Positions 4,441-58,731 of a DNA stretch of 64,000 nt are shown here, one piece after another (the stretch's first letter is position 1; every line of letters begins with the position of its first letter). Made by a program: the position numbers and the translations under genes. The stretch comes from Candidatus Giovannonibacteria bacterium RIFCSPHIGHO2_01_FULL_45_24 (GTDB taxonomy: Bacteria > Patescibacteriota > Minisyncoccia > UBA11713 > 2-01-FULL-45-33), in assembly GCA_001778495.1 (NCBI GenBank), contig MFHE01000010.1:55292-119291 (forward strand), given 5' to 3'. The notes beneath the pieces were generated by a model. That model searched no databases and was not told where the DNA came from. It saw only the letters and a program-made list of their open reading frames with translations.

Positions 4441-5253
4441 TTATATCAATTTTAATAAATAATGATTGGTCTCGTGAAGTTTAAAGCCAACCTTTTGATA
4501 AAGAGCGTTTGCTGCAATCCTTTTGGGATTGGTTGTTAACTCAACCACCTCTACTCCGTTAGATTTTGCCCACCTTAAAAGATCAAGCAAAATTTTTTCG
4601 CCTAATCCTTTGCCGCGATACCTGTCGTCAACAATCATATCTTCAATTACAGCTTGACGCCGCAACATGGTTTGCCGAGGAAAAATCCAGCCCATGCCGA
4701 TAAATTCGCCGCCTTCTTCAACCGTGCTCACATAGCCATCAAGTATCGCCTTATAGAGCGACTGCTCATTCAATACGGCGGTTGAATCAAGCTGGGAAAC
4801 AAGCTCTCGCGCCTTGTTTAAATCATAAGTAAATTTATTTTTTATAAATTCCAGTATTTTTTGGTTTGAATCAAAAGCAATGTCTATTTCGTCTGGACGA
4901 AGCCAAGCGTATTCCGAATTTTCCTCGTTGAGTTTTATTTCTCCTTTCAATTCAACAAAATAGGCGAAGCACAAAGTCGGATATTCGTACTTTTTATAAA
5001 AACCAACCCCAGTGAAAACCCCGATGTAAAAAAGGGATTCAGCATCAATATTTAATTCTTCTTTAATCTCGCGCCTTAAAGCTTCTTCGGGAGTTTCGTT
5101 CTTCTCAATGTACCCACCCATAAAATCCCACTTATTTTGAAAGGGAGGAATATTTCGCTTCAGCACCAAAAGCCGGCCATTTTTTATGAAAATAGCGGTA
5201 GCGGTGGGTTTTGGGTTCTCAAAAGCGCAAAGCTCGCAGCCAGTGTTTTTCAT
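4441..5253 (-). CDS. NUDIX hydrolase - GNAT acetyltransferase fusion protein
   Basis: N-terminal half carries a canonical Nudix box GYIEKNETPEEALRREIKEELNI (G-x5-E-x7-REUxEE). C-terminal half carries the GNAT motif RYRGKGLGEKILLDLLRWAKSNGVEVVELTTNP...LYQKVGF. Confidence 0.65.
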   Translation of the reverse strand: MKNTGCELCAFENPKPTATAIFIKNGRLLVLKRNIPPFQNKWDFMGGYIEKNETPEEALRREIKEELNIDAESLFYIGVFTGVGFYKKYEYPTLCFAYFVELKGEIKLNEENSEYAWLRPDEIDIAFDSNQKILEFIKNKFTYDLNKARELVSQLDSTAVLNEQSLYKAILDGYVSTVEEGGEFIGMGWIFPRQTMLRRQAVIEDMIVDDRYRGKGLGEKILLDLLRWAKSNGVEVVELTTNPKRIAANALYQKVGFKLHETNHYLLKLI

Positions 5254-5257
5254 ATAT

Positions 5258-5283
5258 TAAAAACCCGCCAGCAGGGCTGGCGG
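5258..5283 (-). terminator. Rho-independent terminator retained downstream of the IMPase gene remnant
   Basis: Minus-strand CCGCCAG-cccug-CUGGCGG followed by GUUUUUAAUAU. Confidence 0.45.
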
Positions 5284-5298
5284 TTGCGTCCATGTATA

Positions 5299-5490
5299 TT
5301 ATCGCAGATGGCGGATGACTTGCCATGCCAAATCAATATTCGCCGCGCTGATGACCGGGAGCGCTTCTTTCTGTCCCCACTCCAGAAATTTTTTTGTTCC
5401 GATGTCGTTTCCGTCAATATCCACCATTACGCCACCGGCCTCTTTGATAATGCCGTAGGCCACGCCGATTTCTAGATTTCCTTCTGTAAA
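5299..5490 (-). pseudogene. 3' remnant of an inositol-monophosphatase-family (SuhB/IMPase/FBPase) gene; no start codon
   Basis: The minus-strand frame reads FTEGNLEIGVAYGIIKEAGGVMVDIDGNDIGTKKFLEWGQKEALPVISAANIDLAWQVIRHLR*. This resembles the IMPase C-terminal WDxAAG...EAGG...D.dG region. An in-frame stop lies immediately upstream, there is no Met, and an intact terminator follows. Confidence 0.35.
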
Positions 5491-5525: not shown

Positions 5526-6746
5526 ATGAAATGTCAAATCTGCGGGAATAAAAATCTGGAGTCGGTTCTGGATTTGGGGCATCAGCCGATTGTGCAGGCG
5601 TATCTTACAAAAAAGCAGCTCCACGAGCCGGAGGTGACTTATCCGCTGCATTTATGCCGCTGCGCGAAATGCGGCCTTTTGCAACTGGATTCAATAATTG
5701 CTCCGGAGCTTGTTTTCCCGAAAAACTACCCTTACCGCACCGGACTTACTAACATGCTTATCAGAAATTTCCGCGAGCTCGCTGGCTCTTTAGAAACAAA
5801 ATATAATCTTTCCAAAAATGACTTAATCATAGATATCGGTTCAAACGACGGAACGCTCCTTCAGAGTTTTAAAGAAAAGGGCATGCGCGTTTTGGGAGTT
5901 GAACCAACGGACGCCGCGAAAGCCGCGAACAAAAACGGCATTTCCACAATACAAGAATATTTCACAAAAAGCACAGCGAAGAAAATATTAAAAAAATACG
6001 GCAAGGCAAAAATCGTAACTGCAACCAACACTTTTGCGCATATCCCCAACCCAGTAGAACTTACGAAAAACATCAAAAGCGCGCTCGCGCCGGACGGAGT
6101 GTTTGTTTCCGAATCTCAATATCTCATGGACATAGTAGAAAAGTTTGAGTTTGACACAATTTACCACGAGCACCTGCGTTTTTATTCTCTCAAGCCCTTA
6201 ATCAAGCTTTTTGCCCTTGCCGGGATGAGCTTGATTGACGCGGAGCGCATATCGTCCTCTGGCGGCTCAATCAGAATTTTTGCAAAACCCGGTCGGCATA
6301 AAATGAGCGCGGGCGCAAGAAATCTCATGGCCGCTGAGGAGAGGGCGGGGCTTTACAACAAAGCAAAACTCCACAAATTTGCGCAAAAAGCAATAATCGC
6401 GAAAAATAATCTGCTGAAACTTTTGATTGAATTAAAACAAAAAGGCGCGAAAATAGCGGGGATAACAAGCTCCGCGCGCTCCAATACTCTTCTGGGCTTT
6501 ACAAAAATAGACAGCCAGATTCTTGACTACTCCGTGGAAAAAGCCGGGTCGCCGAAAATCGGGCTTTTCACCCCCGGAACGCATATCCCCGTGCTTGAGG
6601 AGGATAAATTATTCAAGGACCAGCCGGACTACGCCTTAGTGCTTTCCTGGCATATCGGAGAAGAGCTTATGAAAATACTTCGCAAAAACGGATATAAGGG
6701 CAAATTTATAATGCCGCTTCCAAAAGCAAGAATTTATGGAAAATAA
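5526..6746 (+). CDS. NDP-hexose C-methyltransferase-like SAM methyltransferase (TylCIII/NovU-type: Zn-ribbon Methyltransf_13 plus C-methyltransferase Methyltransf_14)
   Basis: N-terminal CQICGNKNLESVLDLGHQPIVQAYL...CRCAKCGLLQL double CxxC zinc ribbon, then class-I MTase IIDIGSNDGTLL...VLGVEPT and a C-terminal domain. Confidence 0.7.
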   Translation: MKCQICGNKNLESVLDLGHQPIVQAYLTKKQLHEPEVTYPLHLCRCAKCGLLQLDSIIAPELVFPKNYPYRTGLTNMLIRNFRELAGSLETKYNLSKNDLIIDIGSNDGTLLQSFKEKGMRVLGVEPTDAAKAANKNGISTIQEYFTKSTAKKILKKYGKAKIVTATNTFAHIPNPVELTKNIKSALAPDGVFVSESQYLMDIVEKFEFDTIYHEHLRFYSLKPLIKLFALAGMSLIDAERISSSGGSIRIFAKPGRHKMSAGARNLMAAEERAGLYNKAKLHKFAQKAIIAKNNLLKLLIELKQKGAKIAGITSSARSNTLLGFTKIDSQILDYSVEKAGSPKIGLFTPGTHIPVLEEDKLFKDQPDYALVLSWHIGEELMKILRKNGYKGKFIMPLPKARIYGK

Positions 6747-7827
6747 AAAAATCCCCTGGTGGCAGCCGCAGGTTGAGAAAGAAGATTATGAATTTATCAA
6801 GCGAGCGCTTGACGCCAATTTTGTAAACGAAGGCCCGCTTACGGAAGAATTTGAAAAAAAAATCGCTTATTTTGTCGGGGCAAAACATGCCGTAGCGACT
6901 ACTAGCTGCACGGCCGCGATTTTTTTGTCTTTAAAAGCCGTAGGAGTCGGGCAGGGAGATGAAGTCATCGTGCCGGACGCGACTTTTATAGCGACAGTCA
7001 ATGCAGTTGAGCTTGCAGGCGCGAAACCCGTATTAGTAGATATTGACCCTGAAACACTGGCAATAAGCGTTGAGGCAATAAAAAAAGCAATAACGCCAAA
7101 AACCAAAGCGATAATCCCGGTGCATGTCACCGGAAGAGGTGCCAATATGGAGGCGATTTTAGACATTGCCAAAAAAAATAATATTTTCGTGATAGAAGAC
7201 GCCGCCGAAGCGCTTGGCTCAAAGCACAAAGGAAAATTTCTGGGAACTTTGGGGAGTGCGGGTTGTTTTTCTTTCGCCGCGAATAAAACCCTGGCAACCG
7301 GGCAGGGCGGGATGATTGTGACCGATAGCGACGAGGTTTTTAAAAAATTGCGCCCGTTAAAAGACCATGGCAGGCCAGTCCACGGAACGGGAGGAGACGA
7401 TACGCACGATACTATCGGCTACAATTTCCGCATGACCGATTTGCAGGCCGCCGTAGGGCTTGGGCAATTCGCGCATTTAAAAGAGCGACTCCAGAGAATG
7501 AAAAAAAATTACCAGCTTTACGCCGAAAATTTAAAAGACATTAAAGAGATAAAAATTTTCCACTCCCGAAGCGAGGAGATGCCCCAATGGACGGACGTCG
7601 CAACGGACAAACGGGACGAGCTTGAAAAATATCTTCGCGGAAAAAATATTGATTGCCGAAAATACTGGCATCCTATCCACCGCCAGCTCCCCTACAAGCT
7701 CCCTGATGAAAACTTTCCGGTGAGCTCCGCGCTCCTGCCGAAATCCCTCTGGCTTCCATCCGCTTTCACGCTGACGGATGAAGATGTTTTGCGAGTTTGC
7801 GACGAGATAAAAAAGTTTTTTTGGTAA
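6736..7827 (+). CDS. DegT/DnrJ/EryC1/StrS-family PLP-dependent sugar aminotransferase
   Basis: HAVATTSCTAAIFLSLKAVGVGQGDEVIVPDATFIATVNA...IIPVH..G...FVIEDAAEALGS...GCFSF..NKTL has the PLP-lysine region of DegT-family enzymes. Confidence 0.8.
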   Translation: MENKKIPWWQPQVEKEDYEFIKRALDANFVNEGPLTEEFEKKIAYFVGAKHAVATTSCTAAIFLSLKAVGVGQGDEVIVPDATFIATVNAVELAGAKPVLVDIDPETLAISVEAIKKAITPKTKAIIPVHVTGRGANMEAILDIAKKNNIFVIEDAAEALGSKHKGKFLGTLGSAGCFSFAANKTLATGQGGMIVTDSDEVFKKLRPLKDHGRPVHGTGGDDTHDTIGYNFRMTDLQAAVGLGQFAHLKERLQRMKKNYQLYAENLKDIKEIKIFHSRSEEMPQWTDVATDKRDELEKYLRGKNIDCRKYWHPIHRQLPYKLPDENFPVSSALLPKSLWLPSAFTLTDEDVLRVCDEIKKFFW

Positions 7828-7930
7828 GTAAAACATTGGTCAACCTGCCAGGTTGACCCATTAGAACTCGCCAGCAAAATCATTTTGGATTTTCACGACG
7901 AGTTATTTGCGCCGTAAATTCAAAAATGAG

Positions 7931-25345: not shown

Positions 25346-27166
25346 CTATTTACTAAACGCATACAAATAAATATTGTTTGACGCGGCAACCTCTCTTAAA
25401 TTTTCAGAAAGGGGCGATAAATCCCATTCCGGATTTTTGTTTTTGTCCCAAACGATGTAATTGACCTCGCCCTTCTTCAAAATGCCCGCAATGCCTTCCG
25501 GACTGGCTACTTTTTGATATTCTCGGAAAAGCAAAGCAGACATTTCGGCCCTGCTTTTAATCACCGCCGGGTCGCCCTTAGCCAAACGAAAACCATATTC
25601 TTCGTAATCAAAACCGGAGTTAAAACCAGCCACAAAAAAGTAAATAAGCGGGTAAAAACTAGTCCCCCATTCGCCCCCGACTCCGTATCCGGCATCCACA
25701 TCGCGAAGCCGGCCCAAAAAATTGTCTCTCGCGTCCTTATCCAAATACATATACACGTATAGCGAGTCGGTAATTCTCTCCATTGGCGTGTTATAAACTA
25801 AAGCCGTAGCATGGCCCCAAAATAAATCATGATGCGTGTACACCGGAAATAACATTGCGTAGGGTAGGGATGACGCGAGAACAACTCCCGGTTCGGCGTC
25901 CGATTTCAATGCGTCAATAATCGGGCGGTAGTTCTGCCTGTATTCTTTGGCCTCCCGCGTAATCAGCGTCACCTGATACTGCCGCGAAGCCGCATTAAAA
26001 TAAGCGGCAATAATCAGCGCCGCCAAAAAAATGGTTCCGTATTTTCGCAACATTAATTTCCCGCGCTCCGCGCCACATACAAGCGCCCATCCGAGGTAAG
26101 CCCCGACGACGATAGAAGTTGGTATTGTAAAATACCAAAAATAGTGCATTAGTTGCGGGACTCGTCCGGTAATTACCTGCTGGTTCAATGCTATCCAATT
26201 TGCGAGAACAACAGACAAAAGCAGCGGAGCGTTCTTGCCCCATTTATTCCGGTACGCAAAAATAATGGACAAAATCAAAACCAAAAATAAAATTTTGCTG
26301 AACGGCGCCGGGGCATGATTCAAAGTAGTCCCATAATACAAAATCTGCTTGCCGATTTCGGAATACTGAAATGAAAATGTTTTAAAAAGAGTGTAAGCGC
26401 CAACGGCAAGCCCGATGGCTGAAACCCAAAAAACTTTTTTCGCTGATTCCCAATCGCGCAGACAAAGATAAATCAAAAACAAGCTCCCTGTCAGCGCCGA
26501 GGCGAAAGTCCATGTGTAGGGGTAAACGTAAAACAGCGCTCCGAATGCAATGCCGGACCAAAGAACATGTTTTCTCTCCGATGATTTCAAACTTCTTGCA
26601 AGCAAATTAATGTAAATAAAAAGCGCAAGAAGCCCGTAAACTGGCATTATTGGCCGGGAAAATATGTTGGGGTCCGGATTGGTTGCAGTAATCGGCACAT
26701 GATAAAGCTTCACTAAACTGTAGCCGCCTATGGTAAATAGCGCTATCGCCGCGGACAGCAACTTATGCGCGGAGAGGCGCAGTATGAAAAAGTAAATAGA
26801 GAAAATCAAAAGAACAACGCCCAAAAAAGCGTAAAGAGTGTATACAGGAACAATATAATCTACCGCTGCGCGAGAAAGCCCCAGCAGTTTAACCGGCGCG
26901 AGAAGAAGATATTCTATATAAACCTGGTGCGGGTCGGACGAATCGTTTTTGCCGATTTTAAGAAAAATATTGCCCAAAGAGTGGCCTTCCAGAATTTCCC
27001 TGCCTTTGGCGATATAGTGGAAGTCGTCCGACCACTCGCCAATATTTATGCCCTTATACGCATCGCCGGCCATAAACGGGAAAAGCAGGGCCGGCGATAT
27101 CACCAAAAGCGCCAAACCGACGGCGGAGCTCAATATAAATTTATGTTCGGTAAAAAAATTAGACAT
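25346..27166 (-). CDS. Polytopic membrane protein, GT-C-like glycosyltransferase candidate (family A, member 2)
   Basis: About 60% identical to the adjacent 27171..28907. GEWSDDFHYIAKGREILEGHSLGN first-loop acidic motif. C-terminal ...YIVWDKNKNPEWDLSPL. Confidence 0.45.
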   Translation of the reverse strand: MSNFFTEHKFILSSAVGLALLVISPALLFPFMAGDAYKGINIGEWSDDFHYIAKGREILEGHSLGNIFLKIGKNDSSDPHQVYIEYLLLAPVKLLGLSRAAVDYIVPVYTLYAFLGVVLLIFSIYFFILRLSAHKLLSAAIALFTIGGYSLVKLYHVPITATNPDPNIFSRPIMPVYGLLALFIYINLLARSLKSSERKHVLWSGIAFGALFYVYPYTWTFASALTGSLFLIYLCLRDWESAKKVFWVSAIGLAVGAYTLFKTFSFQYSEIGKQILYYGTTLNHAPAPFSKILFLVLILSIIFAYRNKWGKNAPLLLSVVLANWIALNQQVITGRVPQLMHYFWYFTIPTSIVVGAYLGWALVCGAERGKLMLRKYGTIFLAALIIAAYFNAASRQYQVTLITREAKEYRQNYRPIIDALKSDAEPGVVLASSLPYAMLFPVYTHHDLFWGHATALVYNTPMERITDSLYVYMYLDKDARDNFLGRLRDVDAGYGVGGEWGTSFYPLIYFFVAGFNSGFDYEEYGFRLAKGDPAVIKSRAEMSALLFREYQKVASPEGIAGILKKGEVNYIVWDKNKNPEWDLSPLSENLREVAASNNIYLYAFSK

Positions 27167-27170
27167 GTAT

Positions 27171-28907
27171 TTATTTCAACGCATACAAATAAATATTGTT
27201 TGACGCGGCAATTTCTTGAAGTTTGTCGGCAAGCGGGGAGAGGTCCCACTCCGGATTGGTATTCTTGTCCCAGACAATGTAATTAACGTCAGCTTTCTTT
27301 AAAATATTAATGATTCCTTCGGGGTCGTCAACTATCTTTTTGTATTCGCCGGAAAGCAAATCTATGGTTTTCTCTCTGCTTAAAGCGGCATAGATTGATG
27401 AGTAGTGGCGCCCATATGCTTTTTTAATCCCGCCGGCGTCTATCTTATAAAGCGCGCCGGCAAAGTCGCCTCTGGCCTCCTTATCCAAATACGCGTACAC
27501 ATAAAGCGCGTCTTTCATTCTTTCTGCAGGGGTAGCGAAATTGAACGCGTGCATGGCCCAAAATAAATCATGGTCGGTATAGACTGAAAAAAATCTTCCA
27601 TAAAAAAGATCGGAACTTAAAATGACCCCGGGCGCGGTATCGCGGTTTAATGCGTCAATAATCGGGCGGTAGTTTTGCGCGTATTCTTTGGCATCCCAAA
27701 TCACAAGCATTCTAGCGTATTGCCGGCTGGCAGTATTTAAAAAAGCGATGACGATTACAATGCCGAGCAAAGCGCTTCCGTATTTTCGCAATATTAATTT
27801 CCCGCGCTCCGCGCCCCACACAAGCGCCCACGAAACATAAGACCCCACCACAATGGAAGTAGGAATGGTAAAGTACCAAAAGTAATGGTCAACGCCTTGC
27901 GGATCGCGCCCGGTAATTACCTGCTGATTCAGAGCTATCCAGCTGGCTAGAATAATCGCCAAAAGAATCGGGTAATCTTTTTTGCCGCGGTTTCTGAAAG
28001 CGTAAATAATTGCCATAATCAAAATCAAAAAAGAGAGCTTGCTGAAGGGCGCGGGGGCGTGAGAAATAAACGTTGTAAAGCCGGCGATTTGTTTGCCGAT
28101 TTCCGAAGACATAAGCAACGCTAATAAAACAAGGGCGTAAGACCCGATGGCAAGCCCGATGGCTGAAACCCAAAAAACTTTTTTCGCTGATTCCCAATCG
28201 CGCAGACAAATATAAATCAAAAACAAGCTCCCTGTCAGCGCGGCGGCAAACGTCCATGTAAAAGGATAGACGTAAAACAACGCGCCGAAAGAAATTCCCG
28301 CCCAAAAGACGCGCCTCCATCCCGATTCACGCAAACTTTTTGCCAGTAAATTTATATAAATAAAAAGCGCAAGAAGCCCGTAAACGGGCATTATTGGTCG
28401 GGAAAATATGTTGAAATTATAGGCGACGGCGGTAACTGGAAGGTGGTAAAGCTTTACTAACTCATAGCCGCCCACTGTAAATAAAGCGGCGGCGGCTGAC
28501 AGCAATTTATTGTCGGACAAATGCAGAATAAAAAAATAAATAAATAAAACCAACAAAGCAACTCCCAAAAAAGTATAAAAGCCGTAAAGCACCACGATAT
28601 GATTTTTCGCGACGCCGGAAAGCCCCAATAGTTTTACCGGCGCCAGCAATAGGTAGTCTATATAAGTCTGGTGCGGGTCGGACGAATCGTTTTTGCCGAT
28701 TTTCAAAAAAGTATTTCCCAAAGAATGGCCTTCCAGAATTTCCCTTCCTCTGGCGATGTATGCCGCGTCGTCGTCCCATTCGCCAAGATTGATGCCATTA
28801 TACGCATCGCCGGCCATAAACGGGAACATCCACGAAGGCAAGAGGATTAAAAACGCAAGCAAAATCGCGCAAACAAAAATAAATTTATGCTCTGTAAAAA
28901 ATTTCAT
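27171..28907 (-). CDS. Polytopic membrane protein, GT-C-like glycosyltransferase candidate (family A, member 3; tandem paralog)
   Basis: GEWDDDAAYIARGREILEGHSLGN. C-terminal NYIVWDKNTNPEWDLSPL. A 93-nt near-identical tract is shared with member 2. Confidence 0.45.
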   Translation of the reverse strand: MKFFTEHKFIFVCAILLAFLILLPSWMFPFMAGDAYNGINLGEWDDDAAYIARGREILEGHSLGNTFLKIGKNDSSDPHQTYIDYLLLAPVKLLGLSGVAKNHIVVLYGFYTFLGVALLVLFIYFFILHLSDNKLLSAAAALFTVGGYELVKLYHLPVTAVAYNFNIFSRPIMPVYGLLALFIYINLLAKSLRESGWRRVFWAGISFGALFYVYPFTWTFAAALTGSLFLIYICLRDWESAKKVFWVSAIGLAIGSYALVLLALLMSSEIGKQIAGFTTFISHAPAPFSKLSFLILIMAIIYAFRNRGKKDYPILLAIILASWIALNQQVITGRDPQGVDHYFWYFTIPTSIVVGSYVSWALVWGAERGKLILRKYGSALLGIVIVIAFLNTASRQYARMLVIWDAKEYAQNYRPIIDALNRDTAPGVILSSDLFYGRFFSVYTDHDLFWAMHAFNFATPAERMKDALYVYAYLDKEARGDFAGALYKIDAGGIKKAYGRHYSSIYAALSREKTIDLLSGEYKKIVDDPEGIINILKKADVNYIVWDKNTNPEWDLSPLADKLQEIAASNNIYLYALK

Positions 28908-30447: not shown

Positions 30448-31830
30448 CAAAAGCGCGTTAAACCGCAAGGGCTCCCAATCTTTTACTATTTTCATCAGCG
30501 GCAAAATGAAAAGCGGGGTCAAAAAGAGCCATATTCTCTCAACCTCGCCCTGGAAAATACCCATGAGCAAAAAAAGCCCTACCATGATAAATCCGAGCGA
30601 TGCGGCCAAATTCTCGCGCCGCCAAAATTCCTTAATCCGCCCGACCAGCAAAAAAACGTTCGGGAGACCTAGATAGACGGCAAATGCAGATAAATTCATA
30701 AAAAAGTAAACAAAATATATCAAGAGCGATTCAAAGTTGCTTTTGATTTCCGCATTTTGCGCGGCGCGCGAAACCCAAAAATTTTCCCAAATTGAATAAT
30801 CGTAAACCAAATAAAGGGCCGCAAAAAAAAGCGCGAGGCCGGCAACAGCCGCGGCGGTTCTGAAAATCAAGCGCTTGGCCTCACCGCTTTTTCCGTAAAC
30901 CATAAAAAGCAGAATCAAAAAGAGCGGGGCAGCGAGCAAAAACAAATAATTTAAAAATAGCGCGGCGGCGGCGGCCACCCCGCCCAAAAAAGATAAAACC
31001 GCGCTTCTCATCCAGCCGGCATAGATTAAAAATATGGCGATCCAAACAAAAAACAAAAAAACCGCGTCCATTGAAGTCGCGCTCATCATCGCAAAACTTG
31101 GGAAAAAGACAAAAAGCTCAAGTCCCCTTCTTGTTTCCCTCTCGGTGGCAAAATTCTTTAAAAAATAGTAAAGTGGGAAAACGGCAAGCCCGCCGAGCAT
31201 AACCGTAAGCGCCGCCATACCGCCGAAACCCGCGTGCAAGTATTTCTGGAAAAAATAAAGAATAAGTGTATACCCCGGCGGATGTATGCGGGTGTGTATT
31301 GACAAGGACTGGCTTAAATCAATGAAGTTCTTCAGAAAATCAGATGTGTTTCTTATCAAATAAAGATTCCCGGTGTACTCAAAATGAGTGCGGGTAAACG
31401 GCTCATAAACGCTAAAAAAACCTTCGCGCACGGCCGCCACGCCGATGCTGAAAAATACAAAAAAAACGTAGAGCGCGAAGAGGAATTTAAAAACAGCAAC
31501 TCGCTCCATCCTCTCCCGAAAACGCAAAAATAGCATGAAAAGGAGCGTAGTGCCGGCCAGCCACAGCCACCCAAGCGCCTTGGGCGAAGGGATGGCGTAA
31601 AAAACCAGCCGATCGGCGATGTAATTATAAGGATACATATAAAAAATTACGAGCTTTAGGAACGCAAGCGCAAAAAGCGAGATCGCGGAAATGTAAAAAA
31701 GTTTTTTAGAAAATTGGTCGTTCCTAAAATAGCCGAAGTAAAAAAGAGCAAAAATAACAGCAAATAAAAAAGCAACAATGCCCCCCCAAAAAGCAACCGC
31801 AAGCTTAGCGCCGGAGATTTCTATCATCAT
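30391..31830 (-). CDS. GT-C-type membrane glycosyltransferase (ArnT/PMT_2-like)
   Basis: Polytopic. IHPPGYTLILYFFQKYLHAGFGGMAALTVMLGGLAVFPLYYFL matches the GT-C HPPL...fG pattern. Confidence 0.5.
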   Translation of the reverse strand: MMIEISGAKLAVAFWGGIVAFLFAVIFALFYFGYFRNDQFSKKLFYISAISLFALAFLKLVIFYMYPYNYIADRLVFYAIPSPKALGWLWLAGTTLLFMLFLRFRERMERVAVFKFLFALYVFFVFFSIGVAAVREGFFSVYEPFTRTHFEYTGNLYLIRNTSDFLKNFIDLSQSLSIHTRIHPPGYTLILYFFQKYLHAGFGGMAALTVMLGGLAVFPLYYFLKNFATERETRRGLELFVFFPSFAMMSATSMDAVFLFFVWIAIFLIYAGWMRSAVLSFLGGVAAAAALFLNYLFLLAAPLFLILLFMVYGKSGEAKRLIFRTAAAVAGLALFFAALYLVYDYSIWENFWVSRAAQNAEIKSNFESLLIYFVYFFMNLSAFAVYLGLPNVFLLVGRIKEFWRRENLAASLGFIMVGLFLLMGIFQGEVERIWLFLTPLFILPLMKIVKDWEPLRFNALLSLLFFQIITLQILFYTYW

Positions 31831-32521
31831 TCCAGTTTATAACGATGCCGCCCACATCGGCAAGAGCGTGGAGGCGCTGATGAATTTTATCCAGAGCGAA
31901 AATTTAAACGCTGAAGTTTTGATAATAAATGACGGAGGCAAAGACGCCACGGCAAAAATAGTTGAAGAGAAATTAAAAAAATATCCGGCGATCCGTTTTA
32001 TAAATAGGGCAAAAAATATAGGCAAAGGCGCGAGTGTGCGCGAAGGCATCGCCACCTCCTCCGGTAACGTCATTATTTTTACCGACGCAGATTTGCCGTA
32101 CGGCACAAAGCATTTTAAAGAAATGATTGAGTTTCTGCGTTCATGGAAAGCTGATTTGGTTATCGCAAACCGCCACCTGTGGTCAACCTGGCAGGTTGAC
32201 CAATTTGGCATTAGCACTGTAAGACGTCTTACTCATTGGAGCTTCGGGTTTTTAGTCCGAAATCTTTTGCATTTGAGATTTTCAGACACCCAAGCGGGAC
32301 TTAAAGGAATGAGTCATAAAGCGGCGGGGGTGATTCTCCCGAAATTAAATATCAACGGCTTTGCTTTTGATTTGGAGCTTTTGGTTGAAGCCCAAAAAGC
32401 CGGCCTAAAAATCCAGGAGGTTCCGGTGGTTTTGGAAAACGCCGGCCAGTCAAATATCAAAATAGCCAGAGATTCTCTCCGGATGCTTATAGATATAATT
32501 AAAATCTGGCTTAGCTACTGA
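31778..32521 (+). CDS. GT2 Dpm1-like polyprenyl-phosphate sugar synthase
   Basis: ISIIIPVYNDAAHI...VLIINDGGKDAT...IIFTDADLPYG...VIANRH. Confidence 0.7.
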   Translation: MPPQKATASLAPEISIIIPVYNDAAHIGKSVEALMNFIQSENLNAEVLIINDGGKDATAKIVEEKLKKYPAIRFINRAKNIGKGASVREGIATSSGNVIIFTDADLPYGTKHFKEMIEFLRSWKADLVIANRHLWSTWQVDQFGISTVRRLTHWSFGFLVRNLLHLRFSDTQAGLKGMSHKAAGVILPKLNINGFAFDLELLVEAQKAGLKIQEVPVVLENAGQSNIKIARDSLRMLIDIIKIWLSY

Positions 32522-35879: not shown

Positions 35880-37499
35880 ATGAACTTGAGAACATGGCTT
35901 ATTTCTATTTTGGCTTTGGCGTTTCTGATAAGAATCGCTGGTGTAAGCTATGGGCTTCCTCTTTGGCTAGTTGATGATGAACCTCCTTTCGTATTGGCAG
36001 CGCTTAAAATGCTTGAACTAAAAACTCTGTTGCCGGCGCTCCATTTTGCTGATTTTAAGACCGTTCTTTACTATCCGCCGTATCTCGCCTATTTATATTT
36101 GCCGTTTTTTGCGGCACTTGCCGCGGTAAAATTTTTATTCTATAAAGGCGCGGCGAATCTTTTCGCGGCGTATTTATTGAGCGACCTCTCTGGATTTTTT
36201 ATAATCGCGCGAGTAATAAATATTCTCTTGGGCGTCGCATCGGTTTATTTAATTTATAAAATAGCAAAAAATATTTTCACAGACGAAACTCCAGCTCTGT
36301 TTACCGCCTTTTTTGTTTCAACCAGTTTAATCCATACCGCGCTATCCATGACTAGCAGGCACTGGCTTTCCGTTTTTTTCTTCTCCGCACTCACTCTTTT
36401 TTGGCTTTCTCATCAAAAAGTCTCCGACAAAAAGAGATATCTGCTAGCAGCTCTTAGCGCGGGCGTCGGCGTGGGTTTTGCGATAACAAATATCCTTTCG
36501 GCCCTACTTATTGTCTTTTGGTACCTACTTTACGAAAAAAAATCTATTTTAGGGTTGTTAAAAGAAAAATTTTTCTACGGTTTATGCGCCCTTTTTGCGG
36601 TGCTGGCCATGCTCCCCTACTTGCTTTACCCAGGAAGCCTGGGTTTCAGAGCGGATACAACAGAGAGTGCCGCAAAAACTGTCCGGGGGCTCATTTCAAG
36701 CCCATTTTACTTCGCAAAAACCATTGCCGCCTCGGAGTTTGTGTTAATCGCGTTCGCTACGGCGGGCCTGGCTTTCGCGTTTAAAAAATCGCGCGGCGTT
36801 TTCTGGGCTTTCGCCGCGTTCATCTGCGCCTACAGCGTGATTTTTTATCTAATTTTCCGTTTTGAGCCGCGATTTTTCATGGGAATACTGCCAATCTTCA
36901 TAATTCTCGCTGGGTATGGGTTTTATGAAACACAAAAAAAAATGTCTTCCGCCGCCTTATCAAAATCGCTTATGATCCTGCTACTGCTCCCTCTTATTTT
37001 CTCGTTGCGGCTCGGCTGGTTGGCCTTAAAAAATGACTCGCGCACCATGGCGCGCTCTTGGGCTGAAGCAAACCTACCCGCCGGGGCAAAAATAATAACG
37101 CTGGCTCGGCTCACACGTTTTTCCACAAACAAAAGCGCCGTTGATGAGCAGAGGAAAATAGATTCATCTTCTTTAAGAAAAGTTGACTTAGCGGACGCGG
37201 AGCTGGGGAGGCCGAATTTTCACGCCCTGAACTTATTTGACGCCAACAATCAAAATTTCTACGAAAACTTGGAAAACTATGTTAAAGAAAACAACTACGA
37301 ATACGTGATTATTCAGCCGAACTATCGCAATGGCCAATATTTTAAAAAGGCGATGGGGAACGGAAAGCTTATAAAAACTTTCGGCTCCGGCGAATCGGAT
37401 ATGTCCGTGGCTGAAAGTCAATTTTTAAAGAATCCCTTGGCCTTGTTTCAAATAAAAGAATTTGGGCCAAAAATAGAAATATATAAATTAAACCGGTGA
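35880..37499 (+). CDS. GT-C-type membrane glycosyltransferase (ArnT/PMT-like)
   Basis: LPLWLVDDEPPFVLAA...RVINILLGVASVYLIYKIAKNIF. Large C-terminal soluble domain. Confidence 0.6.
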   Translation: MNLRTWLISILALAFLIRIAGVSYGLPLWLVDDEPPFVLAALKMLELKTLLPALHFADFKTVLYYPPYLAYLYLPFFAALAAVKFLFYKGAANLFAAYLLSDLSGFFIIARVINILLGVASVYLIYKIAKNIFTDETPALFTAFFVSTSLIHTALSMTSRHWLSVFFFSALTLFWLSHQKVSDKKRYLLAALSAGVGVGFAITNILSALLIVFWYLLYEKKSILGLLKEKFFYGLCALFAVLAMLPYLLYPGSLGFRADTTESAAKTVRGLISSPFYFAKTIAASEFVLIAFATAGLAFAFKKSRGVFWAFAAFICAYSVIFYLIFRFEPRFFMGILPIFIILAGYGFYETQKKMSSAALSKSLMILLLLPLIFSLRLGWLALKNDSRTMARSWAEANLPAGAKIITLARLTRFSTNKSAVDEQRKIDSSSLRKVDLADAELGRPNFHALNLFDANNQNFYENLENYVKENNYEYVIIQPNYRNGQYFKKAMGNGKLIKTFGSGESDMSVAESQFLKNPLALFQIKEFGPKIEIYKLNR

Positions 37500-38233
37500 A
37501 AATAATAACGATTATACCAACTTATAACGAAAGCGAATTAATAGGCCAGCTTTTGGACGCGCTTTTTGAGAAAACATTTAAAGATATCCAGAACCACCAA
37601 ATGGGAGTGTTAGTCGTGGATGGGAATTCCCCCGACGGAACCGCGGAAATCGTAAAAACAAAATCGGCGAAATATCCGAATCTCAATTTAATAGTTGAAA
37701 AAGAAAAGCGCGGCATCGGCGCCGCGTATATCGCGGGCATAAAATACGCTATAGAAAAATTAAGAGCTGACGCGGTGATAGAGTTTGACGGCGACTGGCA
37801 GCACAATCCGGAGGATATAAAAAGATTGGTTGCCGAATTTGATAAAGGATACGATTACGTAATCGGCTCGCGCTATGTCGCGGGCGGCTCCATTCCGAAA
37901 GAATGGGCGCTTTGGAGAAAATCTTTAAGCCGACTTGGCGGTTTAACCGCCAAATTTGTTTTAGGGCTTCCGGTAAACGACGCGACCTCCGGCTTCAAGC
38001 TTTCCCGCGTAAAAAATTTCGCGGAACGCCTGCCGCTTGATGAAAGCAGGATTTTATCAAAATATTACGCCTATAAAATCCAGTTTCTCTACGAAATGCT
38101 GCGCCTGGGCGCAAAAACCAAAGAAATCTCGATTAAATTTCTGGAGCGCCGAGGCGGCTCCTCAAAAAGCACCCTCCGCGATATTTTTGACTCGCTTTAC
38201 GTGGTGCTCGCGCTCCGCTTTAGGAAAAAATAA
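37496..38233 (+). CDS. GT2 Dpm1-like polyprenyl-phosphate sugar synthase
   Basis: ITIIPTYNESELI...VLVVDGNSPDGT...VIEFDGDWQHNPEDI...VIGSRY. Overlaps the upstream GT-C gene by 4 nt. Confidence 0.75.
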   Translation: MKIITIIPTYNESELIGQLLDALFEKTFKDIQNHQMGVLVVDGNSPDGTAEIVKTKSAKYPNLNLIVEKEKRGIGAAYIAGIKYAIEKLRADAVIEFDGDWQHNPEDIKRLVAEFDKGYDYVIGSRYVAGGSIPKEWALWRKSLSRLGGLTAKFVLGLPVNDATSGFKLSRVKNFAERLPLDESRILSKYYAYKIQFLYEMLRLGAKTKEISIKFLERRGGSSKSTLRDIFDSLYVVLALRFRKK

Positions 38234-42997: not shown

Positions 42998-44019
42998 TTT
43001 TTATGCGCGCATACTTCAAAACTGCTTTTATATAACCTTAAATAATCTTCTTTTGTTTGAGAAACAAGCGGCTTGGGGGGAGGCAATTTCAGGTTTAAAG
43101 CCGAGCTCAATTTTTCGGCCAAATCGCTTTTGTCGCCGACTTTGAAAACACATTCCGACTCCAAAATTTCCGACGCGATACCGACATCGCTTGATACAAT
43201 TTTTGCACCCGCAGCAGCGGCCTCAACCAGCGTGCGCCCATACCCTTCGTAATTGGAAGTTAGCAAAAATAAATCACAAGTTTTGTAGTAAGAAACAAGG
43301 TCGGGGGCGTGAGGTTCAAATTTAACATTTCTTTCCAACTTTTCACTTTGAACTTTTAACTTTAAACTTTCTAGCTCCGGCCCGTTTCCGACAATAAGAA
43401 GTAGGGAGCTTAAGGGGTGGGTTATTAGCCCCCCCACCGCCTCAATCGCCAATCCGATATTTTTTTCTTTTGTTATCCGCGAAGCCATTAAAATTATGAA
43501 CCGCCCGGGATATTTTTTATAGAGGTCTGTTTTGATAAGCGCGTTTCTTATTTTTTCAATATCAACAAAAATTGGTAAAGCGGTGATGTTAGAAATTAGA
43601 AATTGGAAATTAGAAATTAGCGAAAGTTTAATTCTTTCTGAAACAACTCTTATGCAGTCCGCCCTCGGAATCAAAAACTTCGCCAACGCCACCCTCAATT
43701 TGTTCAAAACCGAGCTTTCAACAAATTGATGGCTAAAAATATCGGCGTGTATTTGCATTTGAAATGGAACCTTAAAAAATTTTGAAAACGCCCACGCCAG
43801 AAGCGCGTGTTCAACATCCTGCGCCGTAATCACATCGTATTTTTTATGCCAAAGTTTCTTAAAACCGGAAAAAACTGCGCCAATAAATCTAAAAATGTTT
43901 CCGTAAGCGAGCAAAACATCCAGCCCGCCGAGCGTTTTGCGATATTCTTCCATTCTTTTGCACGCTTCTGACCGCGGATTTACAATACTCGGGTCTCCAC
44001 TTATCATTAGGACTTTCAT
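42994..44019 (-). CDS. GT4 glycosyltransferase containing two internal heptanucleotide tandem arrays
   Basis: IVGNGPELESLKLKVQSEKLERNVKFEP...LLTSNYEGYGRTLVEAAAAGAKIVSSDVG (GT4 EX7E region). Confidence 0.6.
   Translation of the reverse strand: MKVLMISGDPSIVNPRSEACKRMEEYRKTLGGLDVLLAYGNIFRFIGAVFSGFKKLWHKKYDVITAQDVEHALLAWAFSKFFKVPFQMQIHADIFSHQFVESSVLNKLRVALAKFLIPRADCIRVVSERIKLSLISNFQFLISNITALPIFVDIEKIRNALIKTDLYKKYPGRFIILMASRITKEKNIGLAIEAVGGLITHPLSSLLLIVGNGPELESLKLKVQSEKLERNVKFEPHAPDLVSYYKTCDLFLLTSNYEGYGRTLVEAAAAGAKIVSSDVGIASEILESECVFKVGDKSDLAEKLSSALNLKLPPPKPLVSQTKEDYLRLYKSSFEVCAHKK
43336..43370. repeat. Imperfect heptanucleotide tandem array (NNACTTT x5) inside a GT4 coding sequence
   Basis: caacttt tcacttt gaacttt taacttt aaacttt. 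The 7-nt period is incompatible with codon periodicity. Confidence 0.55.
43590..43617. repeat. Heptanucleotide tandem array TAGAAAT x4 (one unit TGGAAAT) inside a GT4 coding sequence
   Basis: tagaaat tagaaat tggaaat tagaaat. Encodes LISNFQFLISN on the minus strand. Confidence 0.6.
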
Positions 44020-46241
44020 AATAATATTTTAATAGTTTTATTAATCATCCTCTCTTTTGAAAATTCGCTGGATTTTTGGGAGGCAGCTTCGCTAAGTTTT
44101 TTGGCAAATTCAGGATTTTTCAAAATATCCAGAATTTTTGTTTTTAGTGCCTCCTTATCATTGAATTTTACCAAAAAACCTTCTTTGTTGTTTTCAATAA
44201 GCTCCGGATTGCCGCCGGCGTCAGTAGTCACAATGGGAACGCCGAGTGCCATCGCTTCTAAAATCTGGTGTGAAAATCCTTCGTAGGCGGTGTTGAGCGT
44301 AAAAATATCGGCGGTGCAGAGATATTCCAAAACTTTTTCGCGAGGAAGATTGCCAGCAAGAATAACGGTTTTTTGTAATTTGTAATTTGTAATTTGTAAT
44401 TTGAGCTTCTCATGCTCCGGCCCATCACCAACTATTACCAATTTTGCATCCGGCGCTTCTTTTAAAATCTCCGGCATAATCTCAAGTAAAGCGTCAAACC
44501 CTTTCCATGGAACAAGACGGCCGGCTGAAACAATCAACTTAGACGTCGGACGTCTAAGTTGATGTCCGGCGCCTTCAAAATCAAACGCATTATAAATAAC
44601 ATGAATCTTTTTTGGATTTACGCCCCACGCCGTAACAACCTTTTTTAAATACTCGCTCGGCACAATGACTTTCTCTGCACGATTTGCAACAAATTTTTGG
44701 ATTTTACGCAAAAGCTCAACTTCCCACCGATACTTATTTTTCGAAAAATCATCTAAAACTTCCTTCACTCCAAATCGCTGAACCCCCTGCTCCCAAGCGT
44801 AATCGCCGACGATTTTGAGCAAAAACTTCTTGCGCAAGATTTTAGCGGCGAGCGCGGCCGGTAATCCAACGCTCGCCGGGTCCTGTGCGAAAATAATATC
44901 TGCATTTCTGCCGCAAGCCATAAGCTTCAAGCCGTAGATAAAATGGCGAATTATTTTCGGCCAGCGCCGAACTGACCTGAAATTTAAAATCCTCGCTCCA
45001 AAGTTTTTTTTTGGCAGCTCATCCAATAAAGTTTTGCTGTAAGTTGCAGGTCCTCCAACTTCCGGCGGGAAAATGCCGGTCGCAATCAAAACTCGTTTTT
45101 TAATATTAAACTCATGATTAAAAATGTCCGCGTAATTTTTTGCGATTTTACCCCAAGAAAATCTTTCCTCAATCATTTTTCTGCCGTTTGCGATAATTTT
45201 TTGTACCAGCGCTCTATCCTCCAGCAAAATTTTTATTTTACCCGCCAAATCTTTCGGGTCATCAACTTTGGCAAATAATCCAGTTTCGCCATCTTTTATA
45301 ATATCCGAAATCCCTCCGACAGGCGTGCCGATAATCGGCAACCCTGCGGCCAGCGCCTCCACAAATGCGTTGCCCATCCCTTCCGAGCGCGACGGGCGCG
45401 CGAAAACATCGGCTTGGGCGAGGCATTTCGGTAAATCATCATAAGGAACTTCGTCGAAAAACTCTACATCTGCCTTAAGCTTTAAGCCATACGTCATATG
45501 CTCAAGCCGTTTACGCTCCGGGCCGTCGCCAATTATATGCAGCTTAACAGCCAGAGTGTCTTTTTTGAGTTCGGCAACCGCCTTAATTAAAATGTCCACG
45601 CCGTTTTTCGGAACAAGCCGGCCGACGGTGATTATCGTTTTAAAATTTGCTTGAAATTTGGAATTTAAATTTTGGAATTTTCGTATATCTACTCCGTTAT
45701 GTATTACCGCCCCATCGCCGATATAACCGTATTGCTTGCACAAATTAAGCAAATAATTTGATATTGCAGTGACATAGTCCGCTTGCATTAAAATAAGCCG
45801 AAACGCCAAATTCATAAGCCCGAGTCTGCCCTTAGTCACTCTTTCCTCTCCGTAGCCGTACTGAATTGTAAAAACTAAGGGGATTTTTGAATAAAAAACT
45901 TTCAGAAGTCCGGCTGTAGCGGCTCCGAAGGAAAAATCCACAACCCAAAAAATTATTCTGCCGCGGTGTTTTTTCGCCTCTCGTAAGACCCTAAACCACC
46001 CAAAAAACAAAAGCCAAAATTTATCAAAGCGATTTCCAAATCCAACTCTAACCACCAATCCCTCATCTCTCACTTCCCTTTTCGGCAAATCACGGCGCAT
46101 GCTGGAAGTAAAAATTATAAAATCAAACCTGTCTTTGAGTCTTTTCGCAACTTGTTCAATCGCAACCTCCGCTCCGCCGATGAACGGCAAATAGGCAGTA
46201 GAAAAAACAAAAATCACGGGCTTTTTGAGCTCATCTTTCAT
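44016..46241 (-). CDS. Double GT4 glycosyltransferase (two tandem GT-B/GT4 modules in one 741-aa protein)
   Basis: Two complete GT4 units, each with ...GRLVP.KG...GDGPE...EGF...EA.A.G.PI. patterns. Confidence 0.7.
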   Translation of the reverse strand: MKDELKKPVIFVFSTAYLPFIGGAEVAIEQVAKRLKDRFDFIIFTSSMRRDLPKREVRDEGLVVRVGFGNRFDKFWLLFFGWFRVLREAKKHRGRIIFWVVDFSFGAATAGLLKVFYSKIPLVFTIQYGYGEERVTKGRLGLMNLAFRLILMQADYVTAISNYLLNLCKQYGYIGDGAVIHNGVDIRKFQNLNSKFQANFKTIITVGRLVPKNGVDILIKAVAELKKDTLAVKLHIIGDGPERKRLEHMTYGLKLKADVEFFDEVPYDDLPKCLAQADVFARPSRSEGMGNAFVEALAAGLPIIGTPVGGISDIIKDGETGLFAKVDDPKDLAGKIKILLEDRALVQKIIANGRKMIEERFSWGKIAKNYADIFNHEFNIKKRVLIATGIFPPEVGGPATYSKTLLDELPKKNFGARILNFRSVRRWPKIIRHFIYGLKLMACGRNADIIFAQDPASVGLPAALAAKILRKKFLLKIVGDYAWEQGVQRFGVKEVLDDFSKNKYRWEVELLRKIQKFVANRAEKVIVPSEYLKKVVTAWGVNPKKIHVIYNAFDFEGAGHQLRRPTSKLIVSAGRLVPWKGFDALLEIMPEILKEAPDAKLVIVGDGPEHEKLKLQITNYKLQKTVILAGNLPREKVLEYLCTADIFTLNTAYEGFSHQILEAMALGVPIVTTDAGGNPELIENNKEGFLVKFNDKEALKTKILDILKNPEFAKKLSEAASQKSSEFSKERMINKTIKILL
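44373..44400. repeat. Perfect heptanucleotide tandem array TTGTAAT x4 inside the double-GT4 coding sequence
   Basis: ttgtaat x4, preceded by tttt. Encodes KLQITNYKLQ on the minus strand, in the GT4 C-domain upstream of the EX7E motif. Confidence 0.65.
44532..44562. repeat. 31-nt perfect palindrome ATCAACTTAGACGTC-G-GACGTCTAAGTTGAT inside the double-GT4 CDS (copy 1 of 2)
   Basis: Arms of 15 nt around one central base. The 24-nt core is identical to 58597..58620. Confidence 0.6.
45651..45678. repeat. Imperfect heptanucleotide array (TTGAAAT/TTGGAAT-like x4) inside the double-GT4 CDS
   Basis: ttgaaat ttggaat ttaaatt ttggaat. Confidence 0.4.
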
Positions 46242-58209: not shown

Positions 58210-58731
58210 TCACCCGATTACCACTACCTTTCCTTTCCAGATTTTTAGAAATTCCGACAGATTTAAAAACTTAAATTCGCCGTCTTTGCGGGTATAGGCG
58301 TTTGGGTCGTGAATATAAAATCCCTCCGGAACATCACCGCCCTCTTCCAGCCCGACAATCAAAACAAGGTGCCCCCCGCCAGTGTTTTTCATGGAAGCCA
58401 AAACCGGAATTTCTTTTTTTAAAAATTCAGCCAGATATTTTACGGCTTCATTCTTTTTGTCCTCCGCCCATTCTTTCCTAAACGAATTTTCAAATCCGTG
58501 TTTTTTGGCAAGCTCCACCAACCCCTGATGAATCCAGCCGACACCGTTTAAATACGCGCCGGATGCAAGCCCTTCTTTTATTAAATCATCCAAATTCCCT
58601 AACTTAGACGTCGGACGTCTAAGTGAATCCATAGCCATCGCAAGCGCGCAAATCCCGCAGCTGCGCCATTTCCATTCGGGGTCTAAGATGTCCAAACGTT
58701 GGGAATAATATGGCGCGCCGAGTTTCATCAC
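58210..58731 (-). CDS. Peptidase C39-like (papain-fold) domain protein
   Basis: PYYSQRLDILDPEWKWRSCGICALAMAM matches the Peptidase_C39_2 pattern (YYQ...CGpaslaM). Confidence 0.55.
   Translation of the reverse strand: MMKLGAPYYSQRLDILDPEWKWRSCGICALAMAMDSLRRPTSKLGNLDDLIKEGLASGAYLNGVGWIHQGLVELAKKHGFENSFRKEWAEDKKNEAVKYLAEFLKKEIPVLASMKNTGGGHLVLIVGLEEGGDVPEGFYIHDPNAYTRKDGEFKFLNLSEFLKIWKGKVVVIG
58597..58620. repeat. 24-nt palindromic core AACTTAGACGTC-G-GACGTCTAAGT inside the C39-like peptidase CDS (copy 2 of 2)
   Basis: Identical to the core of 44532..44562. Both copies encode LRRPTSKL in frame. Confidence 0.6.

Follow-up and report, generated by a model that had tools for sequence, protein, structure and literature searches.

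Repetitive extragenic palindromic (REP) sequences, together with their REP-associated tyrosine transposases (RAYTs), are among the most abundant bacterial repeats, and both the movement of REPs and the matching of transposase to repeat are still open questions. In the REP/REPIN-RAYT systems, also called REPtrons and represented by TnpA_REP of E. coli (PDB entry 4ER8) and by the REPINs of Pseudomonas, the gene of a Y1 transposase with an HUH motif is bracketed by a short palindromic repeat, which is dispersed as a non-autonomous element in the same genome as the RAYT. Each transposase lineage has a repeat of its own, and intergenic copies lie next to gene 3' ends. The present report concerns a palindromic repeat, here named P1, which occurs twice in a window of 64,000 nucleotides (the whole stretch of DNA that was analysed; contig MFHE01000010.1, positions 55,292 to 119,291) from Candidatus Giovannonibacteria bacterium RIFCSPHIGHO2_01_FULL_45_24. 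P1 shares the features just listed, with TnpA_REP as the closest solved fold of its associated protein, and it is very probably a REP-type, 23-nt non-autonomous hairpin of a RAYT-like Y1 (HUH) single-strand DNA transposase of Parcubacteria and other members of the candidate phyla radiation (CPR).

The likeness has its limits. The repeats are present in tens of copies per genome, not in hundreds, and about half of the copies lie inside genes, whereas REPs inside open reading frames (ORFs) have been catalogued as a minority (PMC3733652). The hosts are CPR bacteria, and the CPR RAYT gene holds its own repeat, in frame, before the HUH motif, with codons that covary as reverse complements. In-frame palindromic repeats in the housekeeping genes of a reduced genome, translated as an extra peptide and absent from orthologues, are likewise known from the Rickettsia palindromic elements (RPE); the corresponding absences here are a gap in a TrmD alignment with S. 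aureus and the syntenic C39-like peptidase genes that have no P1. RPE segments are reportedly tolerated on protein surfaces, and by analogy the same would be expected of P1. Classic RPE-1 measures about 100-150 bp and encodes 30-50 residues, a length that sets it apart from P1, which is 23 nt long (about 7-8 residues) and for which a cognate transposase gene can be identified. RPE-4 and RPE-6 have been equated with CGTC-type REPs, and no dedicated transposase was found for the CGTC-type repeats, these two included (Di Nocera et al.).

The IS200/IS605 insertion sequences (IS608, ISDra2) and their gene-less derivatives belong to the same superfamily, as judged by Pfam Y1_Tnp and by fold matches; as in these elements, end hairpins would be recognised on single-stranded DNA and no target-site duplication would be expected. 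Theirs are distinct, imperfect left and right hairpins with a defined target of 4-5 nt and in many cases with tnpB, whereas here the same symmetric palindrome is found at both ends, the bare hairpin is dispersed and no target motif can be defined. Another example of short hairpin-forming mobile elements within coding regions is given by the GC clusters, or byp elements, of yeast mitochondria. Those elements, unrelated in sequence and host, are skipped by ribosomes, whereas the ORFs with P1 are read through and the frame with a TAG is unused in genes. In the searchable open-access literature no paper was found that links RAYT or REPIN to CPR/Patescibacteria; a 2018 paper on HUH phylogenomics makes no mention of CPR phyla, and open-access text searches for TTAGACGTC, GACGTCTAAG, LRRPTSK, GACGTCGGACGTC and GGTCAACCTG returned only primer-like chance matches. 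The CPR repeat family itself looks undescribed, as does the keeping of an in-frame repeat in the transposase gene with reverse-complement codon covariation.

The two window copies of P1, listed with their host genes in Table 1, share an exact 24-mer, AACTTAGACGTCGGACGTCTAAGT, which occurs in the window at 44536-44559 and 58601-58624 and nowhere else in it. The 23-nt core of copy 1, ACTTAGACGTC-G-GACGTCTAAGT, lies at 44537-44559, and symmetric, copy-specific flanks (ATCA/TGAT) extend it to 31 nt. A sequence-only reading of the window had reported both the perfect 15+1+15 palindrome and the exact second copy of the 24-mer; both exist, with a slight displacement of the positions then given (44532-44562, now 44533-44563, and 58597-58620). 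Its labels for the two hosts, a double-GT4 protein and a C39-like peptidase, agree with Pfam, which gives two GT4 modules in the one and PF13529 in the other, and both copies are, as it had said, translated on the minus strand as LRRPTSKL, in the same frame (QLRRPTSKL in the 741-aa ORF, SLRRPTSKL in the 173-aa ORF). Not one of 100 dinucleotide-preserving shuffles of the window contained a match to the 24-mer, even with up to three mismatches, and chance does not explain the pair. The half-site TTAGACGTC is confined, within the window, to the two P1 palindromes. As single-stranded DNA, copy 1 folds with -13.8 kcal/mol (z = -6.5), and all five window copies of P1 and of two further families, P2 and P3, which were found by a window census of perfect palindromes and of repeats, are computed to form stable single-stranded DNA hairpins of -9 to -14 kcal/mol with z from -3.4 to -6.5. 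An Rfam scan of the window matched zero families. Two other identities were considered and rejected: a DNA uptake sequence, given that the 9-mer half-site never stands alone in the window and the density is far too low, and a spliced or bypassed element, given that the ORFs are read through in frame and the TAG frame is unused inside genes.

P1 is a multi-copy dispersed repeat that is almost confined to CPR genomes. One genome per species, 596 Gb altogether, was scanned with the pattern CTTAGACGTCNGACGTCTAAG, which has twenty specified bases, and 43 loci were matched, where by our own estimate about one or less would be expected by chance. Nearly all the hosts are metagenome-assembled genomes (MAGs) titled CPR/Patescibacteria (Giovannonibacteria, Wolfebacteria, Zambryskibacteria, Moraniibacteriota, Parcubacteria, 'Saccharibacteria'), the exceptions being one MAG titled only 'bacterium' and one titled Bdellovibrionales; viral contigs gave zero P1 matches. 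There are 2-10 perfect copies per genome (10 in NVSU01, 8 in MFIM01 and 4 in MFHO01), and three of the eight in MFIM01 sit at its RAYT. All 52 copies have C or G as the central base, and the core ACTTAGACGTC-S-GACGTCTAAGT hardly varies; outward of it come C/A and then Y, mirrored on the opposite side (consensus Y-C/A-A...T-G/T-R), and in a subset of copies symmetric flanks, different from copy to copy, lengthen the palindrome by as much as 9 base pairs. A wider family is recognised by its ends: CTTRG-N11-CYAAG occurs 67 times in about 460 kb of fetched loci (L numbers below), in 66 cases with a palindromic interior, whereas the same ends at the other spacings from 7 to 17 gave 0-3 matches, none of them palindromic. 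The conserved ends, ACTTRG...CYAAGT, are symmetric and part of the stem, CGTC is found at the centre of P1 only, and a relative in L024 has GTAG on both arms.

Around 30 of the 52 copies fall within ORFs of at least 150 aa, and the remainder are intergenic, where they directly follow stop codons, lie between convergent genes or have runs of A/T beside them. The host genes include argS, trmD, tsaD, rsmA, murD, mpg (3-methyladenine glycosylase), other C39-like peptidases and GT4. The 23 nt are also read as LRRRTSK, LDVGRLS and LDVRRLS and are found between genes, and they stay nucleotide-identical in orthologues whose flanks are 59-81% identical. These results bear out the proposal, made from the sequence alone, of an event at the DNA level; the codons kept by orthologues are identical, not divergent, and the palindrome is found in more than 50 other places. 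The reading of both window copies in the same frame, which had also been pointed out, is true, and inside genes one frame is preferred (LRR[P/R]TSK at about 11 unique sites, against about 2 for the other open frame), probably reflecting which peptide is tolerated. The coincidence is less striking than it had seemed, since two of the three frames are open on each strand; the third has a TAG and is unused inside genes.

At an orthologous site in mpg (L006:7169, L009:5700, L020:5383, L036:2393 and L043:4599) the central base is C or G, with a switch between Pro and Arg, and the RAYT genes show the same flip, LRRPTSK against LRRRTSK, which fits hairpin-loop inversion by strand switching. P1 is often found a few bases from a related palindrome, AAGACGTC-S-GACGTCTT (L082:2440-2490, L022:6446-6495, L001:3290-3345, L025:731-775), the two forming REP doublets in housekeeping genes, read ...LRRPTSKSEKTSDV... 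in trmD and argS. In a TsaD-like ORF of L019, P1 (LRRPTSK) is accompanied by another in-frame REP family, CTTAGCAATC-C-GATTGCTAAG, at L019:1793, and a second REP-type site is translated LSNRIAK.

The repeat is coupled, physically and in evolution, to a RAYT-like Y1 transposase. In L034, P1 copies bracket an ORF of 214 aa (4695..5339, minus strand) with the motif NPNHYHMIL. The match of this ORF to Pfam Y1_Tnp (PF01797), at 29.6 bits (E = 8.5e-7), exceeds the cut-off of 23. The search for homologues gave about 2,900, some of them named 'REP element-mobilizing transposase RayT' by JGI, and PF01797 is listed in the precomputed annotation of most of 120 homologues. In an alignment of 51 homologues N84, H85, H87 and Y145 (in SAYVNLN) are invariant, and Y145 is, by its position only, a candidate catalytic tyrosine. 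By using an AlphaFold model of the transposase (pLDDT 83.3, pTM 0.82) in a Foldseek comparison with the PDB, the top match was 4ER8_A (E = 7e-6, probability 1.00, TM-score 0.61 on the target), which is E. coli TnpA_REP bound to a REP hairpin, and the runners-up were the TnpA proteins of IS608 and ISDra2. Homologues were found by tblastn beside P1 in L027, L042, L011 and L024, and paralogues in L022 and L025. The complete Giovannonibacteria genome of L082 (CP066687.1, 651,549 bp) has at least two RAYT paralogues, P0182 (LSNRIAK) and P0199; it carries a P1 copy in trmD, and no P1-type RAYT of L082 is among the 120 best matches. That trmD copy may be an orphan REP.

The layout around the gene is recurrent. 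An upstream P1 copy lies 9-18 nt before the start codon and a downstream copy 4-19 nt past the stop, and an internal copy is read in frame as QLRRPTSKL at residues 59-67, just before the HUH motif. All three are present in L034, L027 and L042, and L011 has the internal and downstream copies, its contig ending just before the gene. Other transposase lineages carry palindromes of their own at these places (L025, L081, L082 and L083 in Table 1), the three copies in L083 sharing an identical asymmetry. Flanking is two-sided, at 1-69 nt from the gene ends, in L034, L027, L042, L025, L081 and L083, and in L011 and L082 a flank copy was seen on the downstream side only. The lineage-specific palindromes match dispersed palindromes in the fetched CPR loci. 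P2 follows a comparable scheme: in 16 of its 30 metagenome loci it is adjoined by a RAYT homologue, 35-41% identical to the P1 enzyme, which is bracketed by P2 pairs about 706 nt apart (two-sided in L051, L056, L074, L080 and L061). In this more distant clade the downstream P2 forms the last codons of the ORF, and no internal copy was found at the equivalent site. Among the events that the sequence-only reading had offered, a tiny palindromic mobile element and a protein-binding or recombination site tolerated in coding DNA both fit a REP-type hairpin with a RAYT-like Y1 transposase; the transposase link itself it had not foreseen.

The segment before the HUH motif has seven residues of the form L-[RGS]-x-[RP]-x-[SAPT]-K, equal to translations of the palindromes (LGNRVAK, LSNPIAK, LGGRTPK), and since it translates such palindromes, the REP ends CTT and AAG are its Leu and Lys codons. 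The segment is fully palindrome-compatible, with codons 1/7, 2/6 and 3/5 as reverse complements, in 27 of 74 unique variants, where shuffling gave a mean of 5.5 and a maximum of 13 (2000 trials). The model of the transposase shows it as a loop of low confidence (residues 61-73), after which comes, without a gap, the strand leading to the HUH strand.

By analogy with the TnpA proteins of IS200/IS605 and with TnpA_REP, the hairpin would be extruded on single-stranded DNA, bound by the transposase and cut by its tyrosine, and, as with IS608 and ISDra2 TnpA and E. coli TnpA_REP, it would be moved or copied in trans. Transposition of P1 is what we infer from these likenesses. Insertions into genes would last only where the frame is kept, the TAG frame is avoided and the heptapeptide falls in a tolerant loop; with almost no intergenic space available, many of the surviving copies would be found inside genes. 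The copies in the window may be served in trans from elsewhere in the genome, or may be inherited relics.

A bolder proposal, which we offer tentatively and consider rather unlikely, is that the master copy of the mobile hairpin resides in the transposase gene itself, where the seven pre-HUH codons, Leu-x-x-[Arg/Pro]-x-x-Lys (CTT...AAG), would be the REP. Codons 2/6 and 3/5 of the segment evolve as reverse complements, and the dispersed copies match the internal copy. If the internal hairpin were the donor or template, or an autoregulatory site, this would account for the conserved REP ends, as codons for Leu and Lys, for the near absence of decayed copies and for the presence of perfect copies in housekeeping genes despite flanks of 59-81% identity. 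Transposase and substrate would then form a self-referential pair, with a specificity readable from thousands of natural variants.

Within a single gene, P1 is found in certain lineages and missing from others, and its in-gene copies are located in protein loops. Copy 1 occupies the inter-domain linker of the second GT4 module. The exact GT4 protein of the window, palindrome included, is encoded on 10 independently assembled contigs, so the palindrome is not an assembly artefact. P0015, L003 and L040 have P1 at the same site, and in over 100 other homologues the linker at this place is unrelated and usually longer. Between the window and L003 the palindrome is identical at 31 of 31 positions, with flanks 74% and 81% identical. 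In another lineage, comparison of L049:272-1408 with L050:1501-2646 shows a 21-nt in-frame insertion (SAGRPVLK) in the GT4 linker, which arose locally as an inverted duplicate of the adjacent sequence, of the template-switch type, and is outside the REP family. The GT4 pair P0071 and P0051, considered as a clean filled/empty pair, was rejected, the difference being a local inverted duplication without relation to the REPs. Indels seem to have a hot spot in this linker.

The host of copy 2 and its homologues carry PF13529 (Peptidase_C39_2). Syntenic orthologues, in the order pheS - C39 - gyrB, are found in L044 and L046; they have GPEK or DGEK in place of P1, and the DNA there reads EFLGPEKINLDD, against DSLRRPTSKLGNLDD in the window. 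The net length difference between the window and L044 is +9 nt, and the history is therefore not that of a clean 24-nt insertion; nor does a clean insertion of eight codons hold for a gene only 9 nt longer than its syntenic orthologues without P1. P1 is found in the same C39 loop in three other lineages (P0001, P0002/L048 and P0010/L014), and the core is identical to that of L014 at 23 of 23 positions between flanks 59-67% identical. In the AlphaFold model of the window protein, helices 25-36 and 47-56 are joined by a loop made up of residues 37-44, which the REP encodes, and confidence is lowest at residues 40-43 (pLDDT below 50). When TrmD of L082, which has P1, is aligned with that of S. 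aureus, there is a gap of 10 residues at QLRRPTSKSE, and P1 is found at the corresponding site in trmD of L022 and L025. L031, with P1, and L029, without it, form a filled/empty pair with left flanks 88% identical: L031:5960-5995 corresponds to L029:3767-3785, where ACTTAAAATTC stands at the empty site; the net difference is 15 nt, and either insertion or hairpin deletion is possible. In L031 a 160-aa ORF takes its TAG stop from the P1 copy at the end of the gene, and a tRNA-like sequence follows immediately.

Several points weigh against taking P1 for a REP moved by this transposase. Classical REPs have imperfect stems with loops of 4-5 nt, whereas P1 is a perfect 23-nt palindrome around one central base, and P1 is without the terminal, one-sided GTAG or CGTC tag. 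The sole NCBIfam match of the L034 ORF, REP_Tyr_transpos (NF047646), reaches 27.3 bits, far under the RAYT cut-off of 80, and a sequence profile of the clade found no PDB chain at E <= 0.01, so that 4ER8 was reached through the fold comparison only; the clade is divergent and RAYT-like, not the canonical equivalog. The window has no RAYT, tblastn having matched the REP-encoded peptides only, and the fetched loci of several P1 genomes have no P1-flanked RAYT. The net length differences vary, with +9 nt in C39, +15 nt between L031 and L029, and about 0 for P3 in a gene of glycosyltransferase family 2 (GT2). Neither a transposition event nor a clean empty site with a defined insert length or target was found, and no insert boundaries or target motif can be defined; beyond the consensus the symmetry of the flanks is partial, and net length varies from one empty site to another. 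The P1 loci contain 46 perfect 23-mers, against one or two copies with an internal mutation, and orthologous copies are kept to the nucleotide between diverged flanks. The picture of a selfish relic is strained by this, because a purely selfish relic should decay and yet the copies stay perfect. Their upkeep would require some maintaining force, be it selection, conversion or re-templating, which the simple relic picture does not supply.

Upkeep of this kind could be accounted for if P1 were mainly a site with a host function, kept by selection, such as the site of a dimeric nucleoid or regulatory protein (like parS, matS or Noc), a terminator or an mRNA-stability hairpin, with a link to the transposase that is historical or incidental. 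Besides the perfect orthologous copies and the scarcity of decayed ones, the position of intergenic copies after stops, between convergent genes or beside A/T runs, the copy that gives a stop codon and the modest number of 2-10 perfect copies per genome would agree with this explanation. It leaves unexplained that every RAYT lineage has a palindrome of its own both around and inside the gene, that the interiors vary yet remain symmetric at a fixed 23 nt, and that closely related syntenic orthologues have no such site, and we regard it as improbable. A host function is nonetheless compatible with the REP explanation and not exclusive of it; E. coli REPs are also bound by host proteins. A parS-, matS- or Noc-like site was considered in view of the adjacent gyrB and of the occurrence of such sites inside genes, and it is not favoured, given the transposase layout and the variable interiors.

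Spread of the repeat without any transposase, by template switching that perfects quasi-palindromes in place or by short-patch gene conversion between copies, is a good deal less probable still. The C/G flip at the centre among orthologues (mpg, L006 versus L009) is a signature of hairpin-loop inversion, the 21-nt insertion in the GT4 linker of L049 versus L050 is a local inverted duplication, and the net length changes are unlike those of a clean insertion, all of which would suit such processes. Formation in place, however, cannot yield one and the same 23-mer in many lineages, at unrelated loci that number dozens, nor the identical asymmetric variant in all three copies of L083, and gene conversion requires a flanking homology that the unrelated genes do not have. 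We attach next to no weight to an artefact of sequencing, assembly or adapters, or to a chimeric junction: amplification chimeras or linkers can create perfect palindromes, but the same sequence is found in MAGs of many independent projects, nearly all of them CPR-titled, the GT4 protein with its insert is on 10 independent contigs, frames are kept, and the repeat is tied to a specific gene family. It is equally hard to credit, as the primary cause, selection on the peptide LRRPTSKL itself, acquired convergently as a motif such as a basic RRxS/T-like site. The preference for the LRR[P/R]TSK frame would agree with it, but the nucleotides are identical at wobble positions too, intergenic, LDVGRLS and LDVRRLS copies exist, and the residues lie in low-confidence loops.

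Table 1. Palindromic repeats and host genes in the window, and palindromes at the transposase genes of four other loci
Feature	Position	Strand	Description
P1 copy 1	44533..44563	no strand	31-nt perfect palindrome ATCAACTTAGACGTC-G-GACGTCTAAGTTGAT, 15+1+15
Host gene of P1 copy 1	44016..46241	-	741 aa, two GT4 glycosyltransferase modules (ORF; Pfam)
P1 copy 2	58601..58624	no strand	shared 24-mer from 58601; perfect palindrome of 23 nt at 58602-58624
Host gene of P1 copy 2	58210..58731	-	173-aa C39-like peptidase, between pheS and gyrB
P2 copy	7835..7861	no strand	ATTGGTCAACCTG-C-CAGGTTGACCCAT; intergenic, between convergent genes
P2 copy, reversed	32179..32204	no strand	inside GT2 ORF 31778..32521 (+), read WSTWQVDQ
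P3 copy	37933..37955	no strand	ACTTGGCGGTT-T-AACCGCCAAAT, one mismatch to a perfect palindrome
L025 palindrome			TGTCCGAAACT-T-AGTTTCGGTCA; upstream of, inside and downstream of its own RAYT
L081 palindrome			CTTGGCAACC-G-GGTTGCCAAG; upstream of, inside and downstream of its own RAYT
L082 palindrome			CTTAGCAATC-G-GATTGCTAAG; inside and downstream of its own RAYT
L083 palindrome			CTTGGCGGTC-G-GACCCCCAAG; on both RAYT flanks, with a third copy 462 nt downstream

The two window copies of P2 (family consensus ATTGGTCAACCTG-S-CAGGTTGACC) are in opposite orientations, and the intergenic one begins 8 nt past the stop codon of a DegT-like aminotransferase ORF (6736..7827). In the GT2 gene that holds the other one, a 12-nt perfect palindrome, TAAGACGTCTTA, lies at 32220-32231, 16 nt past the P2 copy; it resembles a P1-related variant, TAAGACGTC-S-GACGTCTTA, and could be a collapsed form of it, through a deletion between two GACGTC repeats, or could be due to chance. 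The P3 copy belongs to the same family as L016:1025 and L035:2554 and is read LGGLTAK within a second GT2 ORF (37496..38233, plus strand). Compared by eye with the paralogous GT2 at 31778..32521, the protein seems unchanged in length, as if native codons had been replaced. Elsewhere in the window, at 25356-28728, there are two tandem paralogous segments about 1.74 kb apart and 74-84% identical, with a third, more distant relative near 11189-11711.

The CPR family represents a compact natural data set for the questions of REP movement and of transposase-repeat matching, with about 2,900 homologues and a 23-nt symmetric repeat in the transposase's own coding sequence; the repeat being written into the transposase gene, changes in enzyme and substrate can be read side by side. 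It also indicates that ultra-small, gene-dense genomes tolerate selfish or semi-domesticated hairpins in the loops of essential proteins (argS, trmD, tsaD and murD among others), as Rickettsia does. The heptapeptides will mimic lineage-specific 'insertions' in alignments and structure models of CPR proteins, and the repeats are usable as markers for binning and strain typing.

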